From NCBI GenBank assembly GCA_040289515.1, contig PSLI01000001.1, forward strand, positions 32,001 through 96,000: 64,000 nt of DNA. The letters are read 5' to 3'. Position 1 is the first letter of the stretch, and every line of letters begins with the position of its first letter. This DNA comes from Candidatus Sysuimicrobiota bacterium. Its GTDB lineage: Bacteria > Sysuimicrobiota > Sysuimicrobiia > Sysuimicrobiales > Sysuimicrobiaceae. A program made the position numbers and the translations under genes. The notes below the pieces were generated by a model, which was not told where the DNA came from, did no database searches, and saw only the letters and a program-made list of their open reading frames with translations. Of the stretch, positions 29,152-39,696 are shown piece by piece.

Positions 29152-30246
29152 ATGGAGGATCCCGTGGTGGTGCGGGCAGCACAGACAGAACGGGCTAGCG
29201 AGCCCCGGGTACGCCTGCTGGGGGTGTCGAAGCACTTCGGGAGCGTGCAGGCCCTCCGGCAGCTGACGCTGTCCGTGTACCCGGGGGAGATCCTGGTTCT
29301 GCTGGGTCCCAGCGGCTGCGGGAAGACCACAGCCCTGAGAATCGTGGCGGGGCTAGAGCAGCCGGACGAGGGGTGGGTGGAGCTAGCGGGCCGGGTGGTG
29401 GCGGGCCCGCGGTGGGTACCCCCGGAGGCCCGGGGGGTGGGCATGGTGTTTCAGGAGCCCTCCCTGTTCCCGCACCTGACCGTGCTGGAAAACGTGGCCT
29501 TCGGGCTGCGCAACGCCTCCCGCGCGGAGAGGCTGCGAAGGGCTTCCGAGGTGCTGGAGCGGGTGGGCGCCGGGGACCTGGCAAGTCGGTTCCCCCACGA
29601 GCTGTCCGGGGGCGAGCAGCAGCGGGTGGCCCTGGCCAGGGCCCTGGCCCCCAGGCCCTCCGTGGTGCTTCTGGACGAGCCCCTCAGTAGCCTCGACCCG
29701 GAGTTGCGGCGCCGCATGCGGGAGGAGCTGCGACGGCTCCTTAAAACGGAGGGCAGTACCGCTATCCTGGTCACCCATGACCAGGAGGAGGCGTTCGCGG
29801 TGGCGGACCGCATCGGGGTGCTGAGCCGCGGGCGGCTGTGGCAGGTGGGGCCGCCGGAGGAAATTTACCACGCTCCTGCCTGCCGGTTCGTGGCGGACTT
29901 CGTGGGCGAGGCGGAGTTTTTACCTGGACAGGTACAGCGGCACGTGGCGCGCACCGAGCTGGGGGAGTTCCCCTGCAACGGCTTGCCGGACGGCACCCCC
30001 GTGGAGGTGATGGTGCGGCCCGCGGACTTGAGCCTGAAACCGAGTCCGGACGGGCCCGCGGTGGTGGTGGGGCGCCGGTTCCTGGGACCGGACACGGTGT
30101 ACGAGGTACGGTTGGCTTCGGGACGCGTGGTACGGTGTCGTTTCACCGGGGACGCAGGCCTCAGGCCGGGAACCCGGGTGCAGGTGTGGGCCACCTCACC
30201 CCGCACCGTGGTATTTCCCGCAGAGGATCCCAGCCCTCCTGCGTGA
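29152..30246 (+). CDS. fbpC: Fe(III) ABC transporter ATP-binding protein
   Basis: GPSGCGKT, LSGGEQQRVALARA, LLDEP, VTHDQEEA and TOBE-like C-terminus. Confidence 0.93.
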   Translation: MEDPVVVRAAQTERASEPRVRLLGVSKHFGSVQALRQLTLSVYPGEILVLLGPSGCGKTTALRIVAGLEQPDEGWVELAGRVVAGPRWVPPEARGVGMVFQEPSLFPHLTVLENVAFGLRNASRAERLRRASEVLERVGAGDLASRFPHELSGGEQQRVALARALAPRPSVVLLDEPLSSLDPELRRRMREELRRLLKTEGSTAILVTHDQEEAFAVADRIGVLSRGRLWQVGPPEEIYHAPACRFVADFVGEAEFLPGQVQRHVARTELGEFPCNGLPDGTPVEVMVRPADLSLKPSPDGPAVVVGRRFLGPDTVYEVRLASGRVVRCRFTGDAGLRPGTRVQVWATSPRTVVFPAEDPSPPA

Positions 30247-30252
30247 TCGGCT

Positions 30253-32607
30253 TCAGGCCTCCTCGGTCACGAACACCACCCGCAGGATCTCCTCGATGGT
30301 GGTGATGCCCTCCAGCACCTTCCGGATTCCGTCCTCCCGCATGGTCCGGAAGCCCTCCTGTCGAGCCACCTCGCGGATCTCCGAGGCCGAGGCCCGCTGG
30401 ACCACCCGCTCCCGGATGCGATCGGTCACCCCCAACAGCTCGTACACCCCGGTGCGCCCCCTGTAGCCCGTCTGGCGGCAGGCATCGCAGCCCGCGCCCC
30501 GGTACAGCACCAGGTCCTGTTCGTCCGCCAGCTCCTCCGACAGCCTGCGGACCGCTTCGCGCGGTGGCCGGTACGCCTCCTTGCACTTGGGACAGATGGT
30601 GCGGCACAGTCGCTGGGCCAGCACCCCGATGACCGAGGAGGTGATGAGGAAGGGCTCGATGCCCATGTCCACCAGGCGCGTGAAGGCGCTGGGGGCGTCG
30701 TTGGTGTGCAGGGTGCTCAGCACCAGGTGACCCGTGAGAGCTGCCTGGACCGCGATCTCCGCGGTCTCCCGGTCCCGGATCTCCCCCACCATGATCACGT
30801 CGGGGTCCTGCCGGAGAATGGACCGCAGTCCGGTGGCGAAGGTGAGCCCCGCCTTGGGGTTCACCTGCACCTGGTTGATGCGGGGGAGCTGGTACTCCAC
30901 GGGGTCCTCCACCGTGATGATGTTCTTGTCCAGGGTGTTGATCTTGCTCAGGGTGGCGTACAGGGTGGTGGTCTTCCCGCTCCCCGTGGGGCCGGTCACC
31001 AGGATCATGCCGTAGGGCTTGCTGGATAGCTCCTCCCACCGCGCCTGCACGTCGCTGGCCATCCCTAGCCGGTTGAGGCGGATGAGGGCGTTGGACTGGT
31101 CCAGGATCCGCATCACGACCTTCTCCCCGAACAGGGTGGGGAGGGTGGACACCCGCAGGTCGATGTCCCGACCGTTCACCTTCAGGTGGATGCGGCCGTC
31201 CTGGGGCCGCCGCCGTTCCGCGATGTCCAGGTTGGCCACGATCTTAATGCGGGAGACCAGGGCCGCCTTGAGGTTCTTGGGCGGGGACATCACGTCGTGC
31301 AGCACCCCGTCGATCCGGTACCGGACGTGCAGGCCGTTCCGGTGGGGCTCGATGTGGATGTCGGAGGCCCCCTCCCGGATGGCTTGGTCCAGAATCACGT
31401 TGACCAGCTTCACCACAGGGGCCTCGTCCACCATCTCCCGGAGGCGGTCGATGCTGACCTCCTCCTCCGCTGCGGCCTCCTCCTCCGGGACCACCGCCTG
31501 CTCCAAGATCGACCCCACGTGGTAGTACCTGTTGATGGCCTGCATCAGCTCGTCTTCCGTTGTGATGCGGGCCTCCACGTCCATCCCGGTGACCAGGCGC
31601 ACGTCGTCCAGGGCCAGCAGGTTCAGGGGGTCCACCAGGGCCACCACCAGCCGATCCCCGTTGCGGGCGAAGGCCAGGACCTTGTGGCGGGCGGCGATGT
31701 GCTGGGGAACGAGCCGCACCACGTCCCGATCCACGGGGGTGCTGGACAGGCTCACGTACGGGCAACCCCACTGTACGCCGATGACCTTGGCCAGGTCCTC
31801 CTCGGTCAGGAGGCCCATGCGGACCAGGATGCGGCCCAGCCGCTCGCCCGTGCGGGCTTGCACCTCCAAAGCTTGCTGCAGCTGGAGCTCGTTCAGCAGC
31901 CCCATACGGACCAGGATGCCGCCCAACGCCTCCCGGCGGACCAAACCGGGGCCCGCCGGCCGGGCCGCAGCCTTGGGACCGGACGGGGGCGCGGGGGGAC
32001 CGGAGGCTGCAAAATCCGGCACGGGCAAGCTGGGCGGGGTGGGTTGCTCGGAGGCTTGTGAGGGCTGCATCTGGGGAGGTTCCTGGCCCGCGGGAGGTTC
32101 CTCCGTCGGCGCCGGCTCCGGGGCCGGTGCCCCCGGCAAGGGTGCTTCCGGGATACTGGCGGCTTCCGCGGGGGCGGTTTGCTGGTCCGGCTGACCCTCC
32201 GCCGCCAACTCGGGCTGGCTCCTGGTTGGCTGCACCGTGTGCCCGTTCACCCGGGCCTCAAGAGCGGCTGCACGGTCCAGAACGCTGGCCGCCTCCTGGC
32301 TCAACCCCAGCCGCTCGTACACCTCCCCCAGGGCCAGCAGGACCACCACGGCCTCCTTCAGGTAGCCCCCGCGCTGGTACAGGTCTGCCAGGTCCAGGTA
32401 GTGCACGGGCTCCTGCGGGGCCAGCTCGATGAGCTTCTTGTACTCCGCGATGGCCTCCTGCAGCCGGCCCGCGTGGGCACACCGCTGTGCTTCGTGGTAG
32501 CGCCACGCGCACTCCAGGGTCAGGTTGCCCGCGGGGATTCCCAGCGACGCCTTGCACTCCCGCAGCGCTGCCAGCTCCGCCTCGGCCTTGGTCGCTTGTG
32601 CCTTCAC
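30253..32607 (-). CDS. pilB: Type IV pilus assembly ATPase PilB/GspE with N-terminal TPR, Pro-rich linker and MshEN-like domain
   Basis: ASDIHIEP, ERRRPQDG, GPTGSGKTTT, TVEDPVEY, LRQDPD, HTNDA and tetra-Cys motif. Confidence 0.95.
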   Translation of the reverse strand: MKAQATKAEAELAALRECKASLGIPAGNLTLECAWRYHEAQRCAHAGRLQEAIAEYKKLIELAPQEPVHYLDLADLYQRGGYLKEAVVVLLALGEVYERLGLSQEAASVLDRAAALEARVNGHTVQPTRSQPELAAEGQPDQQTAPAEAASIPEAPLPGAPAPEPAPTEEPPAGQEPPQMQPSQASEQPTPPSLPVPDFAASGPPAPPSGPKAAARPAGPGLVRREALGGILVRMGLLNELQLQQALEVQARTGERLGRILVRMGLLTEEDLAKVIGVQWGCPYVSLSSTPVDRDVVRLVPQHIAARHKVLAFARNGDRLVVALVDPLNLLALDDVRLVTGMDVEARITTEDELMQAINRYYHVGSILEQAVVPEEEAAAEEEVSIDRLREMVDEAPVVKLVNVILDQAIREGASDIHIEPHRNGLHVRYRIDGVLHDVMSPPKNLKAALVSRIKIVANLDIAERRRPQDGRIHLKVNGRDIDLRVSTLPTLFGEKVVMRILDQSNALIRLNRLGMASDVQARWEELSSKPYGMILVTGPTGSGKTTTLYATLSKINTLDKNIITVEDPVEYQLPRINQVQVNPKAGLTFATGLRSILRQDPDVIMVGEIRDRETAEIAVQAALTGHLVLSTLHTNDAPSAFTRLVDMGIEPFLITSSVIGVLAQRLCRTICPKCKEAYRPPREAVRRLSEELADEQDLVLYRGAGCDACRQTGYRGRTGVYELLGVTDRIRERVVQRASASEIREVARQEGFRTMREDGIRKVLEGITTIEEILRVVFVTEEA

Positions 32608-32652
32608 GGTTTCCTCGCGGCCCCGCCTCCCGGGGCCTCGGTCCGTATGAAT

Positions 32653-32668
32653 AGCAGGTTCTGTGCCC
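32653..32668 (-). promoter_or_regulatory. Putative sigma54 (-24/-12) promoter for pilB
   Basis: Minus strand GGGCACAGAACCTGCT has GG-N10-GC and resembles TGGCAC-N5-TTGCT. Confidence 0.55.
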
Positions 32669-32745
32669 CTCCCCGCCGTCTTTCAGAACAGGCTTTACCG
32701 CAAGGTAGCACCGTACCCCGACCTTCCGCAAGCCCGGCCCATTTG

Positions 32746-32761
32746 TGGAACGAAACTTGCT
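32746..32761 (+). promoter_or_regulatory. Putative sigma54 (-24/-12) promoter for the dnaB-like-pilT-pilC operon
   Basis: TGGAACGAAACTTGCT, one mismatch to TGGCACG-N4-TTGCT, 45 nt before the ATG. Confidence 0.72.
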
Positions 32762-32806
32762 CCACCCCTCCCGGCAGGACTCTACTGGGGCAGGAGGGAA
32801 GTAGCG

Positions 32807-34369
32807 ATGCCCATGGACGCGCGGTACGAGCTGGACGTGGCCGTGCTCAGCGGGTTGGTGGCGGACCGCCACCTGGTTAGTTTGGCCCTCAACGAGGGGT
32901 TCGCGCCGGAGCTGCTCGATAGCCCCACCGCCCAGCGCCTCAGCAAGGTGCTCCTGGAGCTGGCCATGGCCCAGGCCGCGCCCCTAGACGAGGTGGCGGT
33001 GCGCCACGAGGTGCAGGAGCGGGGTCTGCTGAGCCCCGAGATGGAGCGGTTGCTGCAGGCGGTGCATCTTTGCCGGCCGCCAGCTGCGTCTCAGATGGTG
33101 GGGTACCTGGAGGTGCTCAAGGCCCGGGAGAGCCGGCGGCGGCTAGAGGCCGTCCAGAGGCGGATTCAGGATTTCCTGCGCCAGGGGGAGCGGACGGGAT
33201 CGCGGGACCTGGTGCGGTTCGTGGGTGAGCTTGTAGGGGAGCTGTTTGAGATCCAGAAGCGACGCCTGCGGCAGCGCCTGTTGCCTGCGGGGGACGTGCT
33301 GGCCGAGCTGCTGGAGAACGTGCAGAACCCCGCAACCGGGGGGTTTCTGGGCTACTCCATCTCCCCCTTTGACCGGCTGAACCGGGTGCTGTCGGGGCTG
33401 CGCCCGGGCTTCTACTACGGGCTGGCGGGCGCTCCGCGTCGGGGCAAGACGAACCTGACCCTGCAGATGGCCACCTATGTGGCCCGGAACCACCGCATCC
33501 CCGTCCTGTTCTACTCGTGGGAGCAGACCACCAAGGTGCTGGCCGCTCGCCTGCTGGCCATGGAGCTCCTCGTAAGCCCCGCGGACATCCTGGCAGGCAC
33601 GGTGGGCCGCGCCCGGGTGGACACAGGCCGGCTGCGGGCCGCGGAGGAAGAAGTGTACCGGTACGCACCCTACCTGTATCTGGTGGAGGCGGGCCGCAAG
33701 GATACCCTGGACCGCATCAAAGCACACGCCTACAACGTGATGCAGGAGCACGACACCAACCGGATCCTCATCTGCCTGGACTATCTGCAGAAGATCCCCC
33801 TGGAGGAGCCCGTGGCGGACGAAAAGGCCCGCACGGACCTCATCTCCTCCCAGCTGGCGGAGCTGAGTTTGGAGCTGCGGGCACCCATCCTGGCCATCTC
33901 GCCTTTGGACAAGGAGGGCTGCCGCCTGGACGAGCGCCCTGCGGAGGAGGATGGGCCCAGTGAGCTGTACGAGCGGCCCACCATGCACCACAGCGTGGGC
34001 TCCGGGGATCTGGAGTACGACCTGGACGTGGCCATGGTGCTGGTCAAGGACTGGAAGGCCACGCACGACCTGCGGGAGTACCTGGAGTCCAAGGCTCGGC
34101 AGGAGGGCACAGACCCCGAGGAACTGCCCAGGATCGACATCCTCAACCTGTTTATCGACAAGAACCGGGACGCCCCGGAGGTGGAGTCCAACATCGTGCA
34201 GTTTGCCTTCTTCATTCCCCTCAATAAGCTGGTGGAGCTGGGCTACAAGCACGAGAAGGAGTACCGCGGGGACTTCCGGGGCTTCTCCAAGGTGGTGGAG
34301 ATCTACACCCAGCTGAAGGAGGCGGGGTTGCTCCCGAGCGTCCGGGAGACCCTCGTGGCGAGCAACTGA
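32807..34369 (+). CDS. Divergent DnaB-like (SF4, RecA-fold) helicase
   Basis: AGGAGG RBS; DnaB-like N-terminal domain; Walker A GAPRRGKT, YSWEQ, Walker B LDYLQ, ISPL, SGDLEYDLDV and KNR arginine-finger motif. Confidence 0.88.
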   Translation: MPMDARYELDVAVLSGLVADRHLVSLALNEGFAPELLDSPTAQRLSKVLLELAMAQAAPLDEVAVRHEVQERGLLSPEMERLLQAVHLCRPPAASQMVGYLEVLKARESRRRLEAVQRRIQDFLRQGERTGSRDLVRFVGELVGELFEIQKRRLRQRLLPAGDVLAELLENVQNPATGGFLGYSISPFDRLNRVLSGLRPGFYYGLAGAPRRGKTNLTLQMATYVARNHRIPVLFYSWEQTTKVLAARLLAMELLVSPADILAGTVGRARVDTGRLRAAEEEVYRYAPYLYLVEAGRKDTLDRIKAHAYNVMQEHDTNRILICLDYLQKIPLEEPVADEKARTDLISSQLAELSLELRAPILAISPLDKEGCRLDERPAEEDGPSELYERPTMHHSVGSGDLEYDLDVAMVLVKDWKATHDLREYLESKARQEGTDPEELPRIDILNLFIDKNRDAPEVESNIVQFAFFIPLNKLVELGYKHEKEYRGDFRGFSKVVEIYTQLKEAGLLPSVRETLVASN

Positions 34370-34373
34370 GGGG

Positions 34374-35528
34374 GTGGCCGTGAACATCGAGCAGCTCCTG
34401 AAGGACGTGGTGGACCGCCAGGGCTCGGACCTGCACCTTACCGCTGGGGTCCCCCCCCTGATGCGGGTGTGGGGCCAGCTGGTGCCCATGACCGGCTACC
34501 CCGTCCTCACCCCCGAGGACACCTACCAGCTGGCCTACAGCATGCTGAACACCTTCCAAAAGCAGAAGTTTGAGAAGAACTGGGAACTGGACCTGTCCTA
34601 CGGGGTACCCGGGTTGGGCCGGTTCCGGGTGAACGTGTACCGGCAGCGGGGGGCGGTGGGGGTGGCCGTTCGGGTGATCCCCCACGAGATCCCCCGTCTG
34701 GAGGATCTGAACCTGCCCAGCGTGCTGACAGAACTTACCCGCAGGCCCCGGGGCCTGATCCTGGTCACGGGCCCCACAGGGCAGGGCAAGTCCACCACCC
34801 TGGCAGCCATGGTCAACCAGATCAACGAGGAGCGCAGCTGCCACATCGTCACCATCGAGGACCCCATTGAGTACCTGCACAGCCACAAGCGCAGCGTCGT
34901 GAACCAGCGGGAGCTGGGCGTTGATACCCAGTCCTTCCCGAACGCCCTGCGGGCGGCCCTCCGGGAGGACCCGGACGTGGTCCTGATCGGGGAGATGCGG
35001 GACCTGGAGACCATCGCGACCGCCCTCACCATCGCGGAGACCGGGCACCTGGTCTTCGCCACCCTGCACACCGCCAACGCCGCGCAGTCCGTTGACCGCA
35101 TCATCGATGTGTTCCCGCCGCACCAGCAGCAGCAGGTGCGGGTGCAGCTCAGCTCGGTGCTGGAGGCCGTGGTGAGCCAGATCCTGCTGCCCAACCAGCT
35201 GTTCCTGCGGCGGTTCGGCAACCAGGAGGGGTACGCTGTGGCGCGGCGCAGCGGCGGGGTAGACACCGTGCGGCGGAGCTGGCCCACCCTGGAGGAGATC
35301 GGCCGGGTGCCTGCGGTGGAGGTGATGATTGTCACCCCCGCCCTCCGCAACCTCATCCGGGAGGGGAAGACCCACCAGATCGAGTCCGCCATCCAGACCG
35401 GGGCGGAGTGGGGGATGCAGACCATGGACCAGTCCCTGCGGGATCTGTACCAGCGGGGGCTCATCTCCTACGAGGACGCCCTCGGGAACGCCATCCATCC
35501 CGAGGAGCTGCGCCGGATGATAGGCTGA
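34374..35528 (+). CDS. pilT: Type IV pilus retraction ATPase
   Basis: SDLHL, RFRVN, GPTGQGKSTT, TIEDPIEY, ALREDPD, ETGHLV, ALRNLIRE and GMQTMD. Confidence 0.96.
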   Translation: MAVNIEQLLKDVVDRQGSDLHLTAGVPPLMRVWGQLVPMTGYPVLTPEDTYQLAYSMLNTFQKQKFEKNWELDLSYGVPGLGRFRVNVYRQRGAVGVAVRVIPHEIPRLEDLNLPSVLTELTRRPRGLILVTGPTGQGKSTTLAAMVNQINEERSCHIVTIEDPIEYLHSHKRSVVNQRELGVDTQSFPNALRAALREDPDVVLIGEMRDLETIATALTIAETGHLVFATLHTANAAQSVDRIIDVFPPHQQQQVRVQLSSVLEAVVSQILLPNQLFLRRFGNQEGYAVARRSGGVDTVRRSWPTLEEIGRVPAVEVMIVTPALRNLIREGKTHQIESAIQTGAEWGMQTMDQSLRDLYQRGLISYEDALGNAIHPEELRRMIG

Positions 35529-35541
35529 AGGGAGGACGGAG

Positions 35542-36759
35542 GTGGCCCTCTACCAGTACACCGCCCGGGAGCAGACCGGCCGCGTGGTTTCGGGGACCCT
35601 GGAAGCCGACAACGAGGTCCAGGTGGCGGAGAAGCTGCACCAGATGGGCTTGTTCATCACCGCCATCGAGCGGGTCAAGGCGGGGCCCGGGGAGGTGTGG
35701 AGCTTCCTGGATCTGTTCCGGGGCATCTCCCTGCGGGACCTGGCCCTGTTGAGCCGTCAGTTTTCCACCATGGTGAACTCGGGCCTCACCCTGGTGCGGT
35801 CGTTGGTCATCCTGGAGCAGCAGACCACCAGCCACCGCCTGCGGGAGGTCCTCCAGAAGGTGCGTGCAGACGTGGAGCAGGGCCACGCCCTGGCGGACGC
35901 CTTGGCCAAGCACCCTCAGGCCTTCAGCTCCCTGTACGTGAACATGGTGCGGGCAGGGGAGGCAGGCGGCGTGCTAGACGACGTGCTGCAGCGCCTGAGC
36001 ACCTTCCTGGAGAAGGAGTTCGCCCTGCGGCAGAAGATCAAGTCCGCCATGGTGTACCCCGTGATCCTCACCCTGGCCGCGACCGGTGCCCTGCTGTTCA
36101 TGACCATGGTCATCATTCCTCAATTCGTGGTGTTCTTCCGCGAGCTGAACGTGGGTGAGCTGCCCCTGCCCACGCAGGTGGTGATGGGCATCAGCTACCT
36201 GCTGCGCGCGTACTGGTTCGTGTGGGTCCCGGGGACCGCGGTACTCGTAGGGGGCTTCCTGCGGTGGCTGCGCACCGCCACGGGGAAGGCCTGGTGGGAC
36301 CGGGCCAAGCTGCGCCTGCCCGTGTTCGGGCCGGTGATCCAGAAGACCCTCCTGGCCCGGTTCGCCCGCACCCTGGGCACCCTCCTCGGTGCCGGGGTCC
36401 CGCTTCTGCAGGCCTTCGACGTGACCAGCAAGGCGGTGGACAACGTGGTGGTGGAGGAGGCCCTTCGAAAGGTGCGGGCCAGCATCCGGGAAGGGGAGAG
36501 CATCGCCGTCCCCCTGTCTCAGGTGGAGCTGTTTCCGCCCATGGTGGTGCAGATGGTACGGGTGGGGGAGGAGGCCGGGAATCTGGAGGAGATGCTGGCG
36601 AAGTTGGCGGACTTTTACGACACGGAGGTGGAAGCCGCGGTCCAGGCCCTGGCCAGCACCCTGGAGCCCGCCATGATCGTGTTCATGGGGTTCGTGGTGG
36701 GCGCCATGGTTATCTCCCTGTACCTACCCATTTTCCAGATGGCCGCGAAGGCGGGTTAA
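35542..36759 (+). CDS. pilC: Type IV pilus platform protein PilC/GspF
   Basis: RQFSTMVNSG, AGEAGGVLD, SAMVYP, VGEEAGNL and LYLPIF. Confidence 0.96.
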   Translation: MALYQYTAREQTGRVVSGTLEADNEVQVAEKLHQMGLFITAIERVKAGPGEVWSFLDLFRGISLRDLALLSRQFSTMVNSGLTLVRSLVILEQQTTSHRLREVLQKVRADVEQGHALADALAKHPQAFSSLYVNMVRAGEAGGVLDDVLQRLSTFLEKEFALRQKIKSAMVYPVILTLAATGALLFMTMVIIPQFVVFFRELNVGELPLPTQVVMGISYLLRAYWFVWVPGTAVLVGGFLRWLRTATGKAWWDRAKLRLPVFGPVIQKTLLARFARTLGTLLGAGVPLLQAFDVTSKAVDNVVVEEALRKVRASIREGESIAVPLSQVELFPPMVVQMVRVGEEAGNLEEMLAKLADFYDTEVEAAVQALASTLEPAMIVFMGFVVGAMVISLYLPIFQMAAKAG

Positions 36760-38611
36760 ACACCCCGCGGGGTCGCACCACCACCGCGTCGCTGACGGGC
36801 CGCTCTCCTCCCTCGTCGGAGGGGCGGTTCGCTACAGTTCCCCCCACCACCAGAGTGGTGGAGCCGCCCCCGTCGAGGTTCACGGCCTCCCGCGCGCCCA
36901 GGGCGACCAGCTCCCGCGCCAGCTCCTCCAAGGTCATGCCGAGCCCGTGCTCGGGCCAGCGTCCATCCACCACCACCAGCAGCAGGCTGCCGTCCTGCCC
37001 GATGCCCACCGCGGTGCGGGGGTGGCGGCGGTTCCGAAAGCCGTCCGGGAAGCCTTCGTGGGCAGGACGGGCAACACCCCCCAACACGAGGCGCGGGCCG
37101 CCACACACCACGTGCCGCGCGGCCTGCCAGCGCGCATCCCCGGAGGCGGGATGCAAAGAGAGCAACACCCGTACAGGGTCGCCCGCCCGCAGACCCTGCA
37201 GCGCGGCCGTGGCAGTGCCGCTGGCCGACACCACGTAGCCATCCGGCGGGATCGCGGCACTGCCCCCGGAACGCGCTTCCCGCACCACTCCGCCCGCCAC
37301 CACCACCTCCAGCTCGGCGTCGCCCCGTGTGGCCTGCCCGAAGCGCGGGGTGTACAGGATCACTTCCCCGCTCCTGCGGACGCGGTTTACTCCCGAAAGG
37401 CGCACGGTGACGCCGGGCGCGACAAGCTTGCCCTGCCAGTCCAGGGCGTCCATCAGCACGAACCCTTCGCCCAACCCCAAACACGTGCGGCCGGGTACTG
37501 GCTCGCTCACCCACTCCCCATCCACCACCAGCCCTCCTGCGGGGTCGCCGTCCGGTGCGAAGAACCCGCCGTTGATGGCCGCCAGCGCCCCCACCCGCCG
37601 GCTTATCTCCGAGGTGCGCTCGCGTCCCGGTACCTGGTCCCGCGCCAGCACCGGCCGCACCTCAAACCGGTCCGGATCCACGCGCAGCGCGGCCACCCAC
37701 TGGGGCCCGGGAAGTCTTTCCAGGTCCCGCACCGTGGACAGCACCCAGGTGGGCAACCCTTCCTCCCGCAGGCGCGTGGCCAGCTGCTCTGCCTCCCGGC
37801 GGGTGGCAAAGGAGCCCACGCGCACCTTGTACAGCCCGTCCAGTTCGTCCACGGAGGCCACGAGCCCCGCATCCCGCATGCGGGATGCAAGCCGCTGCGC
37901 GTTGTCGGGGTTACCGAACGCGCCCACCTGCACCCGCCAGGTCGGCAGGGCCCGCAGGGCACCGCGCTTTTCTACCGCCAGCAGAAGTCCGCTCGATACA
38001 ACCTGCTGATACCGCAGCCGCACGCCTTCCTCCACGGCCCTCAGGTAGGCCCACAGCAGGCCCGCAGCCTCGCCGCGGGTGAGGGGTTCATCCCGGCGCA
38101 GGACCCCGGAGGAGTCCTGCAGGAGGGGTGGCTCGGTGCGGGTGGCCAGCACCAGTGCGGGGGTCACCGGACCGGGGGTATCCACGCGGGAGGCCAGCCA
38201 GTCCGCCTCCCACCGATACCCCAAAGCCCGCACCACCCAGTCCACGGCATCCTCCCGGCGCACGGCCTCCGCGGGCCGGAAACGCACTTGGTCCGATACG
38301 AGGCCGTAGCGACTGGCGGCCTCCACGAAGGGCGCTTCGGGGTGCGAGGCCGGAATGTCGCCGAACGTGGAGTGCTCGACCCGCCTCGTCGGGAGCCCCT
38401 TCGCCGTCACCAGCCACCGCAAAAAGCGTGCCCGCGAAAGAGTTGCGTGAGGCCGAAACAGGCCGTCGGGGTCGGTGTCCACCACCCGGCGCTCCAGCAG
38501 GGTCTGGATGGCAACGGCGGCCTGACTTGCAGCCCAATCGCCGGAGGCGGGCTGAGTCCGGGCCAAGCTCGCTATAGCAGCTACCCACAGGACAACGAGT
38601 GCCCTTCGCAC
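36710..38611 (-). CDS. Exported SLH + SPOR + phosphodiester glycosidase (NAGPA-like) protein
   Basis: Signal-like N-terminus; SLH motifs FRPHATLSRA and FRPAEAVRRE; SPOR VQVGAF...VRVGSF; AINGGFF, HPRTAVG and NLDGGGS; start uncertain; 3' end overlaps pilC by 50 nt. Confidence 0.85.
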   Translation of the reverse strand: MRRALVVLWVAAIASLARTQPASGDWAASQAAVAIQTLLERRVVDTDPDGLFRPHATLSRARFLRWLVTAKGLPTRRVEHSTFGDIPASHPEAPFVEAASRYGLVSDQVRFRPAEAVRREDAVDWVVRALGYRWEADWLASRVDTPGPVTPALVLATRTEPPLLQDSSGVLRRDEPLTRGEAAGLLWAYLRAVEEGVRLRYQQVVSSGLLLAVEKRGALRALPTWRVQVGAFGNPDNAQRLASRMRDAGLVASVDELDGLYKVRVGSFATRREAEQLATRLREEGLPTWVLSTVRDLERLPGPQWVAALRVDPDRFEVRPVLARDQVPGRERTSEISRRVGALAAINGGFFAPDGDPAGGLVVDGEWVSEPVPGRTCLGLGEGFVLMDALDWQGKLVAPGVTVRLSGVNRVRRSGEVILYTPRFGQATRGDAELEVVVAGGVVREARSGGSAAIPPDGYVVSASGTATAALQGLRAGDPVRVLLSLHPASGDARWQAARHVVCGGPRLVLGGVARPAHEGFPDGFRNRRHPRTAVGIGQDGSLLLVVVDGRWPEHGLGMTLEELARELVALGAREAVNLDGGGSTTLVVGGTVANRPSDEGGERPVSDAVVVRPRGVFNPPSRPSGKWVGTGR

Positions 38612-38709
38612 GGGGGTTGGCTTCGCAACTTCGGGGCCAGCCTCCTGCGGAAGGGGACAGCCCACCAACGTGGAATGTTCCCACCGCGACGCTTGGGGGG
38701 GGAGGACCC

Positions 38710-39696
38710 GTGGTTCAGCTGCGGACGTCTTACGCGCAGGACCTGCGGCTGGTTTCGAGCTGGACGGGCTGGCTGGGCGTGGTGCTCCTGGGCGTGGGGC
38801 TGGCCCTACTGCCCCTGCTGGCACCCCGGTACGTGGTGTACGTAGCCACCATGGCCGCGGTGCACACGTTGGTGGCAGTGGGCCTGAACCTGTTGGTGGG
38901 CTACGCCGGCCAGATCTCCCTGGGCCACGCGGGCTTTTTTGCCGTGGGTGCGTACACCCACGGGCTGGTGCTGACCCGGCTGGGGTGGGGGTTCTGGCCG
39001 GCTTTCGCAGCCGCGGCCGTGGTGAGCCTCCTGTTCGGGTACGGGGTAGGGGTGCCGGCCCTTCGGCTTTCAGGTCCGTACCTGGCGGTGGCCACCATGG
39101 CCTTCGGCCTGGCCGTGCACCAGGTGCTGGTGAATTGGGAGGCCCTCTCGGGCGGGCGATCCGGACTGTTCCTGCCCGAGGTGCGGCTGCTGGGTGGGTC
39201 CCTGAAGGACGAGCGGATGCTGTACGGCGTCGTGGTGGCCGTGACCGTGTTGCTGGTGCTGGCCGCGGCGCGTCTGGTGCGCTCGTATGTGGGGAGGGCG
39301 TTCGTTGCCATCCGGGACAGCGACGTAGCCGCGGAGCTGTCGGGGGTCGACCTCACTCGTTACAAAACCCTGGCCTTCGCCCTGAGCGCCCTGTACACGG
39401 GAGTGGCGGGTGCCCTCCTGGGGCACGTGGTGGGCTTCCTGGAGCCGCAGCTGTTTACCCTGTTTGAGTCCGTGTACTTCCTCTCCTTGGTGGTGGTGGG
39501 GGGCCTGGCCTCCATCACGGGCAGCGTGCTGGGCGCGGTGCTTTTGACCCTGCTGCCGCAGGTGCTCTCCGGAGTGGGGGAGGCCCTCAACGTCCTGTAC
39601 GGGGCCGCGGTGATCCTGGTTCTGCGGTTCGAACCGGGCGGGCTGTACGCCCGGTGGCTGAAGATCCAGCGGTACTGGAGGACCTGGCCTTTGTGA
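38710..39696 (+). CDS. livM: Branched-chain amino acid-type ABC permease
   Basis: GLNLLVGYAGQISLGHAGF, LRLSGPYLAVAT and GRAFVAIRD. Confidence 0.92.
   Translation: MVQLRTSYAQDLRLVSSWTGWLGVVLLGVGLALLPLLAPRYVVYVATMAAVHTLVAVGLNLLVGYAGQISLGHAGFFAVGAYTHGLVLTRLGWGFWPAFAAAAVVSLLFGYGVGVPALRLSGPYLAVATMAFGLAVHQVLVNWEALSGGRSGLFLPEVRLLGGSLKDERMLYGVVVAVTVLLVLAAARLVRSYVGRAFVAIRDSDVAAELSGVDLTRYKTLAFALSALYTGVAGALLGHVVGFLEPQLFTLFESVYFLSLVVVGGLASITGSVLGAVLLTLLPQVLSGVGEALNVLYGAAVILVLRFEPGGLYARWLKIQRYWRTWPL

Follow-up and report, generated by a model that had tools for sequence, protein, structure and literature searches.

Why should a gene that resembles the replicative helicase gene dnaB stand at the head of an operon for a type IV pilus motor? 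The question is posed by a 64,000-nucleotide (nt) stretch of DNA, hereafter the window, from the genome of an uncultured hot-spring bacterium of the Candidatus Sysuimicrobiota (GenBank assembly GCA_040289515.1, 1.99 Mb, 96.7% complete; positions 32,001 to 96,000 of contig PSLI01000001.1, our contig C62). Its G+C content is 70%, and its closest named relatives are metagenome-assembled genomes (MAGs) of CSP1-3/Sysuimicrobiota, among which Ca. Tepidifontimicrobium thermophilum encodes a protein 87% identical to the one at issue. That protein, a DnaB-like paralogue that we call DnaBL, is specified by 32807..34369 on the plus strand (520 amino acids, aa; ATG start, TGA stop at 34367-34369). Its stop codon lies 4 nt before the start of pilT (34374..35528, plus strand), the gene for the retraction ATPase; pilC, for the platform protein, follows 13 nt further on (35542..36759, plus strand), and pilB, for the extension ATPase, is divergent (30253..32607, minus strand). 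An earlier interpretation made from the letters of the window, the sequence-only reading, had described this layout, and it was correct in every part. Since a diverged second DnaB fronts the retraction genes behind a pilin-type promoter, DnaBL likely serves the pilus machine. Specifically, we propose, at a little short of an even chance, that DnaBL is an accessory ring ATPase of the type IV pilus motor of this lineage and not a replication helicase. The basis for this proposal is circumstantial and comes from four directions, namely position, promoter, phyletic pattern, and recurrence in other phyla.

Our results place DnaBL among the DnaB proteins and apart from the replicative ones. It scored 88.1 bits against DnaB_C (PF03796; cut-off 27) and 116.2 bits, under the cut-off of 385.25, against the equivalog model for replicative DnaB (TIGR00665). 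The N-terminal domain model PF00772 was matched by another member of its clade (P0129; E 4.9e-8), and no match of DnaBL to KaiC (PF06745) was obtained at E<=0.01. An AlphaFold model of DnaBL built on a 61-row alignment reached a predicted local distance difference test score (pLDDT) of 91.3 and a predicted template-modelling score (pTM) of 0.81. Its best structural matches in Foldseek were full-length DnaB chains with both N- and C-terminal domains (7t22_A, E 2.4e-23, TM 0.63-0.78), in agreement with the full DnaB architecture claimed in the sequence-only reading. By its C-terminal RecA-type score and its predicted N-terminal fold, DnaBL qualifies as a probable member of the DnaB-like SF4 helicase superfamily.

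The same genome contains a canonical dnaB on another contig (C9), with 283 bits to DnaB_C and a frame of 794 aa. An intein sits in the P-loop of this canonical gene, directly after the Walker A lysine (L003 1-2145, minus strand), and DnaB frames of ~780-1230 aa in relatives suggest one or more inteins across the order. Because the genome holds this separate, intein-bearing dnaB, DnaBL is a paralogue, and the possibility that it was the only dnaB present can be set aside. Likewise, a canonical DnaB above the TIGR00665 cut-off (543-583 bits) was found in five of five distant carrier genomes tested, two from Riflebacteria and one each from Caldisericum, Wallbacteria, and Desulfomonilaceae. The score of 583 bits belongs to the Wallbacteria genome, which also carries copies of DnaBL. 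A phmmer search of 1.84 billion representative sequences returned 26 proteins at E<=1e-30, followed by a drop to ~115 bits and 28% identity; the clade, as judged from these scores, is small and sharply bounded. In a tree of 50 rows, all 23 DnaBL rows fell on one branch (99 in the Shimodaira-Hasegawa-like approximate likelihood ratio test, SH-aLRT), and a second branch of 25 rows, also with a support of 99, held the canonical DnaBs of the same six genomes. The expected separation from replicative helicases is therefore visible in this tree, from which one extracted row had been dropped as a likely wrong frame and in which one long-branch row (P0153) lay near the RadA outgroup. A third, still more diverged DnaB-like gene occurs in Riflebacteria and Wallbacteria genomes (G041, G042, G044; L200-L202), where it scores 82-96 bits on TIGR00665 and forms a long branch of its own. 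Members of the DnaBL clade appear in public records as "DnaB-like helicase C-terminal domain-containing protein," "AAA family ATPase," or "replicative DNA helicase."

What has changed in DnaBL is not the ATPase site. Its motifs include Walker A (GAPRRGKT), SWEQT, Walker B (LDYLQ), and DKNR, and among 13 of 13 aligned members that are 36-73% identical to the window protein, GAPRRGKT, PVL..(S/T).EQT, and DY.QK.P are invariant, along with K.(E/D)G, G.GD.EYD.D, and DKNRD. It follows that conservation extends to both the ATP site and the inter-subunit K.R element. When DnaBL was aligned to Geobacillus DnaB with HMMER, it had ISPL for LSQL and VGSGDLEYDLD for RESGSIEQDAD; clade-wide, RESG is replaced by xGSG and LSQL by ISP/SL, and in the profile alignment to Geobacillus DnaB, ISSLDKEGC stands in the place of LSQLSR. 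The loop between the LSQL-type and RESG-type motifs is longer than in the Geobacillus protein, the C-terminus is extended relative to it, and ~18-20 extra residues precede KNR (insert at ~415-440, an extra helix in the model). The sequence-only reading had noticed these substitutions, the C-terminal extension, and the insert, which it put at roughly 20-25 aa. Furthermore, the net charge from the H3 motif to the H4 motif is negative in 30 of 30 DnaBL proteins (-1 to -8, mean -4.4), compared to a range of -3 to +5 and a mean of +1.1 for the same loop in 31 other DnaB-family proteins. Because the RESG motif is gone and the loop is acidic, we suggest that DnaBL would still act as a ring ATPase but no longer grip single-stranded DNA (ssDNA) in the manner of DnaB.

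Taken together, DnaBL shares with replicative DnaB (TIGR00665; 7t22, 4esv, 2r6a, 8a3v) a helical N-terminal domain, a linker, and a RecA-type C-terminal domain, and it keeps Walker A, Walker B, the position of the catalytic Glu, and the K.R finger. It departs from replicative DnaB in its score (116 bits against a 385-bit cut-off), in its separate clade, in being a second copy in every carrier tested, and in its acidic and longer loop, xGSG, ISP/SL, extra helix before KNR, and C-terminal extension. The two also differ in gene context, which for DnaBL is that of the pilus and not of replication. No primase, ssb, rplI, phage, or other replication gene was found among the 20 flanking open reading frames (ORFs) scanned (18700-47742), as the sequence-only reading had maintained.

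The pilus context itself is well defined, with pilB, pilT, and pilC all identified by family models. PilB (784 aa from the GTG at 32607) consists of an N-terminal TPR region, a Pro-rich linker, MshEN, and T2SSE, with profile scores of 496 bits for T2SSE and 83 bits for MshEN plus TPR matches; the whole protein reached 670.9 bits against TIGR02538 (cut-off 675.65) and 679.3 bits against TIGR02533 (cut-off 630.25). PilT, which starts at the GTG at 34374 or at an alternative GTG at 34380, matched TIGR01420 at 489 bits in two stretches, which implies a predicted insert of ~40 aa after residue 275. PilC has two T2SSF domains (220 bits) and scored 409 bits against NF052607, under its 700-bit cut-off. 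On the plus strand, the sequence reads GGAGGG, a Shine-Dalgarno-like element (32793..32798), 8 nt 5' of the DnaBL ATG, and no terminator-like site was found between DnaBL and pilT.

The spacer of 199 nt between the opposite-strand starts of pilB and DnaBL contains two sigma-54-type promoter-like motifs. On the DnaBL side, TGGAACGAAACTTGCT (32746..32761, plus strand) lies 45 nt upstream of the start codon. On the pilB side, a genome-wide motif scan identified GGGCACAGAACCTGCT on the minus strand (32653..32668, where the plus-strand letters are AGCAGGTTCTGTGCCC), again 45 nt upstream of the start. Both fit the sigma-54 consensus GG-N10-GC, and a scan of 30000-37200 for consensus sigma-70 promoters gave no sites. 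When the spacers of seven relatives were aligned, the motifs stood out as two conserved islands amid a mean identity of 56%: TGGAACG.AA.TTGCT on the DnaBL side was unchanged in seven of seven, and on the pilB side the core AGCA...T.CC was kept in all seven, with variable flanks. These features argue for sigma-54-dependent promoters, which we predict to be in use.

The same promoter type is found elsewhere in the genome. The strict form TGG(A/C)AC-N5-TTGC(A/T) occurs 13 times, the DnaBL site included, compared to 1.55 on average and at most 3 in 20 shuffles. The first ORFs 3' of these strict motifs include DnaBL, the gene for a type IV pilin, and pilM, behind which lie pilN and a secretin gene; others encode two proteins of the HD-GYP type, one GAF-PAS-GGDEF cyclase, one factor of the sigma-70 family, and one response regulator (the HD-GYP, GGDEF, sigma-70-factor, and response-regulator motifs being on contigs C2, C11, C13, and C37; L203, L206-L208, L210). 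There is one rpoN in the genome, adjoined by the sole strong sigma-54 activator, which is of the REC-sigma54-HTH_8 type. Because strict motifs also precede HD-GYP and GGDEF genes, a single-activator sigma-54 regulon may join pili with the turnover of cyclic di-GMP (c-di-GMP). As a separate observation, behind the sigma-54-preceded pilin gene (contig C8, L214 1492-6410) lie the genes of two large membrane proteins that carry PMT_2 glycosyltransferase domains, and their place next to the pilin may point to pilin glycosylation.

Within the Sysuimicrobiota, pil genes were found beside DnaBL in all 33 loci that had enough flank and at least 52% identity. The order in family f1 is pilB, divergent, then DnaBL, pilT, and pilC in one direction. 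Outside f1 it is pilB1 (divergent or co-directional), DnaBL, MerR, DUF6812, pilB2, pilT, and pilC, with MerR, DUF6812, and pilB2 variably present across the linked loci and pilB1 adjoining DnaBL in every one of them. To this extent, the description of DnaBL as the lead gene of a pilus motor operon holds for part of one phylum only, with rearrangements.

The phyletic pattern is consistent with such a tie. We examined 41 relatives of the order, accepting DnaBL at E<=1e-150 and pilT as a full-length orthologue of the pilT in the window. DnaBL was present in 30 and the window-type pilT in 28, and their presence or absence was concordant in 37 of the 41. Both were found in 27 genomes and neither in 10 (one of these unpublished; completeness 83-98%); three had DnaBL only (completeness 72, 83, and 93%), and one had the window-type pilT only (72%). 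In 19 of the 27 genomes with both, the two genes lay on one contig and no more than 2.9 kb apart. The remaining eight, all of family f2, had them on different contigs; there, the ORF at +1 of DnaBL is small (158 aa) and hydrophobic, probably a membrane protein, and gave no family match. Two genomes that lack DnaBL were opened, and they had pilT'-pilT''..MerR-pilB(-pilB2)-pilC and no window-type pilT. Both keep a PilC that is 52-54% identical. DnaBL thus tracks one pilT variant, recognizable by its two-stretch profile match and ~40-aa insert, and not pili as such. We considered and rejected the idea that the PilT insert accompanies DnaBL across phyla. Since the PilT homologues of five distant carriers align to residues 2-276 only, the insert is specific to the phylum.

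Outside the Sysuimicrobiota, pattern scans found relatives of DnaBL in 259 and 243 genome stretches. The clade is rare yet spread across many phyla, among them Sysuimicrobiota, Riflebacteria, Wallbacteria, Muiribacteriota, Caldisericota, Acidobacteriota, and Desulfomonilaceae, and pilus-related genes recur near it. PilB is encoded at +4 of DnaBL in one locus (L162) and a PilB-HATPase fusion at +4 in two others (L180, L181). ComFB and STAS genes stand at +1 and +2 in L161, ComFB and a secretin at -2 and -1 in L183, and STAS genes are nearby in L171, L173, and L175. In one MAG group, DnaBL lies between accB and accC, 3' of efp (L186, L190, L192), and an MshEN-domain protein that lacks the ATPase domain occurs at +3 in two of these loci (L186, L190); an MshEN protein is also at +3 in L113. 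In Riflebacteria/Ozemobacteraceae (L116-L160), where BamA-OmpH-LpxD-LpxC lies 5' of DnaBL on the opposite strand, the +1 gene encodes a conserved protein that is 560-640 aa long and includes a TPR-like stretch (39 loci), DnaBL itself has a zinc ribbon (CxxC…CxxC) in its N-terminal part and a long linker rich in P and Q, and a weakly pilin-like gene belongs to a conserved cluster in 23 loci. By a rough estimate made without a control set, a PilB or MshEN gene would be expected within 5 kb of a random gene in 2-3% of cases. Because this rate is so low, the recurrence of pilus-related neighbours looks like more than chance.

If DnaBL is an accessory ring ATPase of the pilus motor, we would expect it to assemble into a hexamer and to consume ATP like DnaB, to have given up threading ssDNA through its ring in DnaB style, and to act on or together with the pilus ATPases. 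Gene coupling and co-occurrence suggest PilT as the partner; the neighbourhoods in other phyla suggest PilB or MshEN proteins. A complex prediction for PilB (225-784) with DnaBL (160-520) from separate alignments scored 0.01, to which we attach no weight either way. The role could be comparable, as the sequence-only reading had also suggested, to that of the RecA-type protein ArlH (FlaH) with ArlI in the archaellum. Like DnaBL, ArlH is a RecA-type protein whose gene accompanies those of a PilB-like ATPase and a PilC-like platform protein, and it is reported to interact with ArlI, the archaellum motor ATPase (10.1101/2021.03.19.436134). Yet ArlH is archaeal and consists of a single KaiC-like domain, whereas DnaBL has the whole architecture of DnaB and is bacterial. 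ArlH with ArlI is, by analogy, the nearest functional counterpart, and DnaBL is no member of the ArlH family. A more specific version would make the DnaB-descended hexameric motor a third ATPase ring that docks on PilT or PilB and gates or powers extension and retraction, a bacterial counterpart of ArlH with an independent origin. We regard this version as doubtful.

A number of observations weigh against a role in the pilus motor. First, DnaBL is dispensable for some pilus motors of the order: relatives that lack it retain MerR-pilB(-pilB2)-pilC and other pilT paralogues, so it is not required by every such motor. In family f2, the operon MerR..pilB1(TPR)-pilB2-pilT-pilC is intact without DnaBL in cis, and four of nine f2 DnaBL matches contain one stop codon within the aligned stretch. 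Second, only in family f1 is DnaBL preceded by the sigma-54 motif: four of four f1 loci score 10/11, a score that none of the other scanned loci reaches. Third, the genomes compared are kin and not independent, and linked genes vanish together in a single assembly gap. The counts therefore overstate independence, and there were perhaps two to four separate joint absences of DnaBL and the window-type pilT. Fourth, pilB, pilT, and pilC are all missing from the 8 kb around DnaBL at 46 loci of the clade; these come from Sysuimicrobiota f2, Acidobacteriota, Limnocylindrales, Eisenbacteria, Desulfomonilaceae, Thermodesulfobacteriota, and others. For these lineages, the place of DnaBL at the head of a pilus operon cannot be upheld. 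No pilus-like neighbours of the Caldisericota copies or of most Wallbacteria/UBP16 copies were seen in the neighbourhoods scanned, where one UBP16 copy has OB-fold and TctA genes next to it, and the match of the Riflebacteria pilin-like gene is weak (N_methyl, E 0.00096). Finally, RESG and the LSQL glutamine are what we take to be the ssDNA-contacting and gamma-phosphate-sensing elements of DnaB, and the argument from their loss depends on that assumption.

Alternatively, DnaBL could be a DNA motor of natural transformation, that is, a DnaB-type translocase or helicase that handles the single strand after pilus retraction. RadA/Sms and ComFA are motors of this kind, and RadA is itself a DnaB-type RecA-fold ring. 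DnaBL would resemble RadA in its ring-ATPase family and in the N-terminal zinc ribbon of some clade members, those of Riflebacteria, and it would resemble both RadA/Sms and ComFA as a type of ATP-driven motor tied to pilus-dependent DNA uptake. Its DnaB fold and complete ATPase site, its coupling to the gene for the retraction ATPase, the presence of ComEC and DprA in the genome, and the ComFB genes beside DnaBL in L161 and L183 are all consistent with such a function. ComFB proteins are described as receptors for cyclic dinucleotides (c-di-NMP) that control pilus biogenesis and DNA uptake (PMC12448109, 10.1101/2023.11.27.568819). However, DnaBL lacks both the Lon-like C-terminal domain and the DEAD-box and has lost the DNA-loop motif: the loop aligned to RESG is without Arg-Glu and net acidic in 30 of 30 members, and the LSQL glutamine is replaced. 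In addition, no comEC, comEA, or dprA was seen beside DnaBL in the neighbourhoods scanned, and a putative RadA-like gene, with a weak DnaB_C match and a CxxC start, is already present in this genome on contig C14. The DNA-translocase mechanism, which the sequence-only reading had offered as one of its options, is weakened by the state of the loop, and we consider a transformation motor unlikely.

It is also conceivable that DnaBL performs a cellular job unrelated to pili, for example in DNA repair or as a housekeeping ATPase, and that its place in the pil operon is an inherited accident. Most carrier lineages show no pil linkage, and the neighbours there include enolase, haem synthesis genes, accB/accC, and BamA-LpxD. 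Enolase and metallophosphoesterases are neighbours in Acidobacteriota, Limnocylindrales, and Eisenbacteria. In Desulfomonilaceae/Thermodesulfobacteriota (L093-L114), a small ABC-type ATPase (239-285 aa; AAA_15/AAA_21/SMC_N) follows at +1 in 16 loci, and a DUF6125 protein lies 5' of DnaBL in 10, making a conserved trio. Furthermore, family f2 has a pil operon without DnaBL, and all pil-linked genomes come from one order, so the linkage may be a single event. Against such an accident, the linkage persists down to 52-57% protein identity amid inversions, insertions, and losses of surrounding genes, the common sigma-54 promoter type is kept in seven of seven relatives, and the eight f2 genomes in which DnaBL and the window-type pilT are unlinked nevertheless contain both. 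Moreover, PilB/MshEN, ComFB, or secretin neighbours turn up in at least five further lineages, at a chance of 2-3% per lineage by the rough, control-free estimate given above. We find an unrelated job quite unlikely. It is improbable, finally, that DnaBL is a KaiC-like switch that signals to pilus gene expression or activity through STAS, ComFB, sigma factors, and c-di-GMP enzymes without touching the motor: STAS or ComFB genes do lie beside it in five loci (L161, L171, L173, L175, L183), a PAS histidine kinase is at +2 in Desulfomonilaceae, and the predicted sigma-54 regulon holds two HD-GYP proteins, one GGDEF protein, a sigma factor, and a response regulator, but DnaBL does not match KaiC, it retains the full N-terminal collar of DnaB, and the flanking-ORF scan found no regulator gene inside the operon of the window.

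An accessory ring ATPase in the pilus motor would have implications beyond this lineage. Type IV pilus motors are not known to use ATPases other than those of the PilB and PilT types. If our proposal is correct, a conserved RecA-type ring that is co-expressed with the motor ATPases would add a part to a well-studied machine and would show that a replication helicase has been re-used for another task. At the least, the automatic annotation of DnaBL, whether generic or as a replicative DNA helicase, is misleading. The literature searched yielded no account of a DnaB-like gene within a pilus operon, and the main text of the paper on Sysuimicrobiota (PMC11604079) contains no occurrence of pili, pilus, pilT, competence, or DnaB. 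A Caldisericum record that bears no MAG label (L189) carries DnaBL, and experiments may therefore be possible.

Several minor points concern the genes around DnaBL. An ancestry shared between the TPR region of PilB and the Riflebacteria +1 TPR protein was considered and rejected, as the BLASTP matches (E 0.027 and 0.006) covered short TPR-like stretches and were unspecific. The idea of a defence island was dropped after PADLOC assigned no defence family to DnaBL, and the +1 ATPase of Desulfomonilaceae was rejected as a defence gene because it matched generic AriA/PtuA/GajA-type ATPase models only. In the PilB of the window, the TPR part and linker correspond to 31900-32607 (minus strand), and the Pro-rich linker before MshEN is ~100 aa long. 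The TPR part is also present on the pilB1 of families f5 and f2; it is unmatched in two genomes that lack DnaBL, in one of which there is no room for it. The locus is flanked by an ABC importer and by an SLH/SPOR protein. The latter, which combines SLH, SPOR, and NAGPA (phosphodiester glycosidase) domains, is encoded at 36710-38824 on the minus strand, convergent on pilC and overlapping its last 50 nt.

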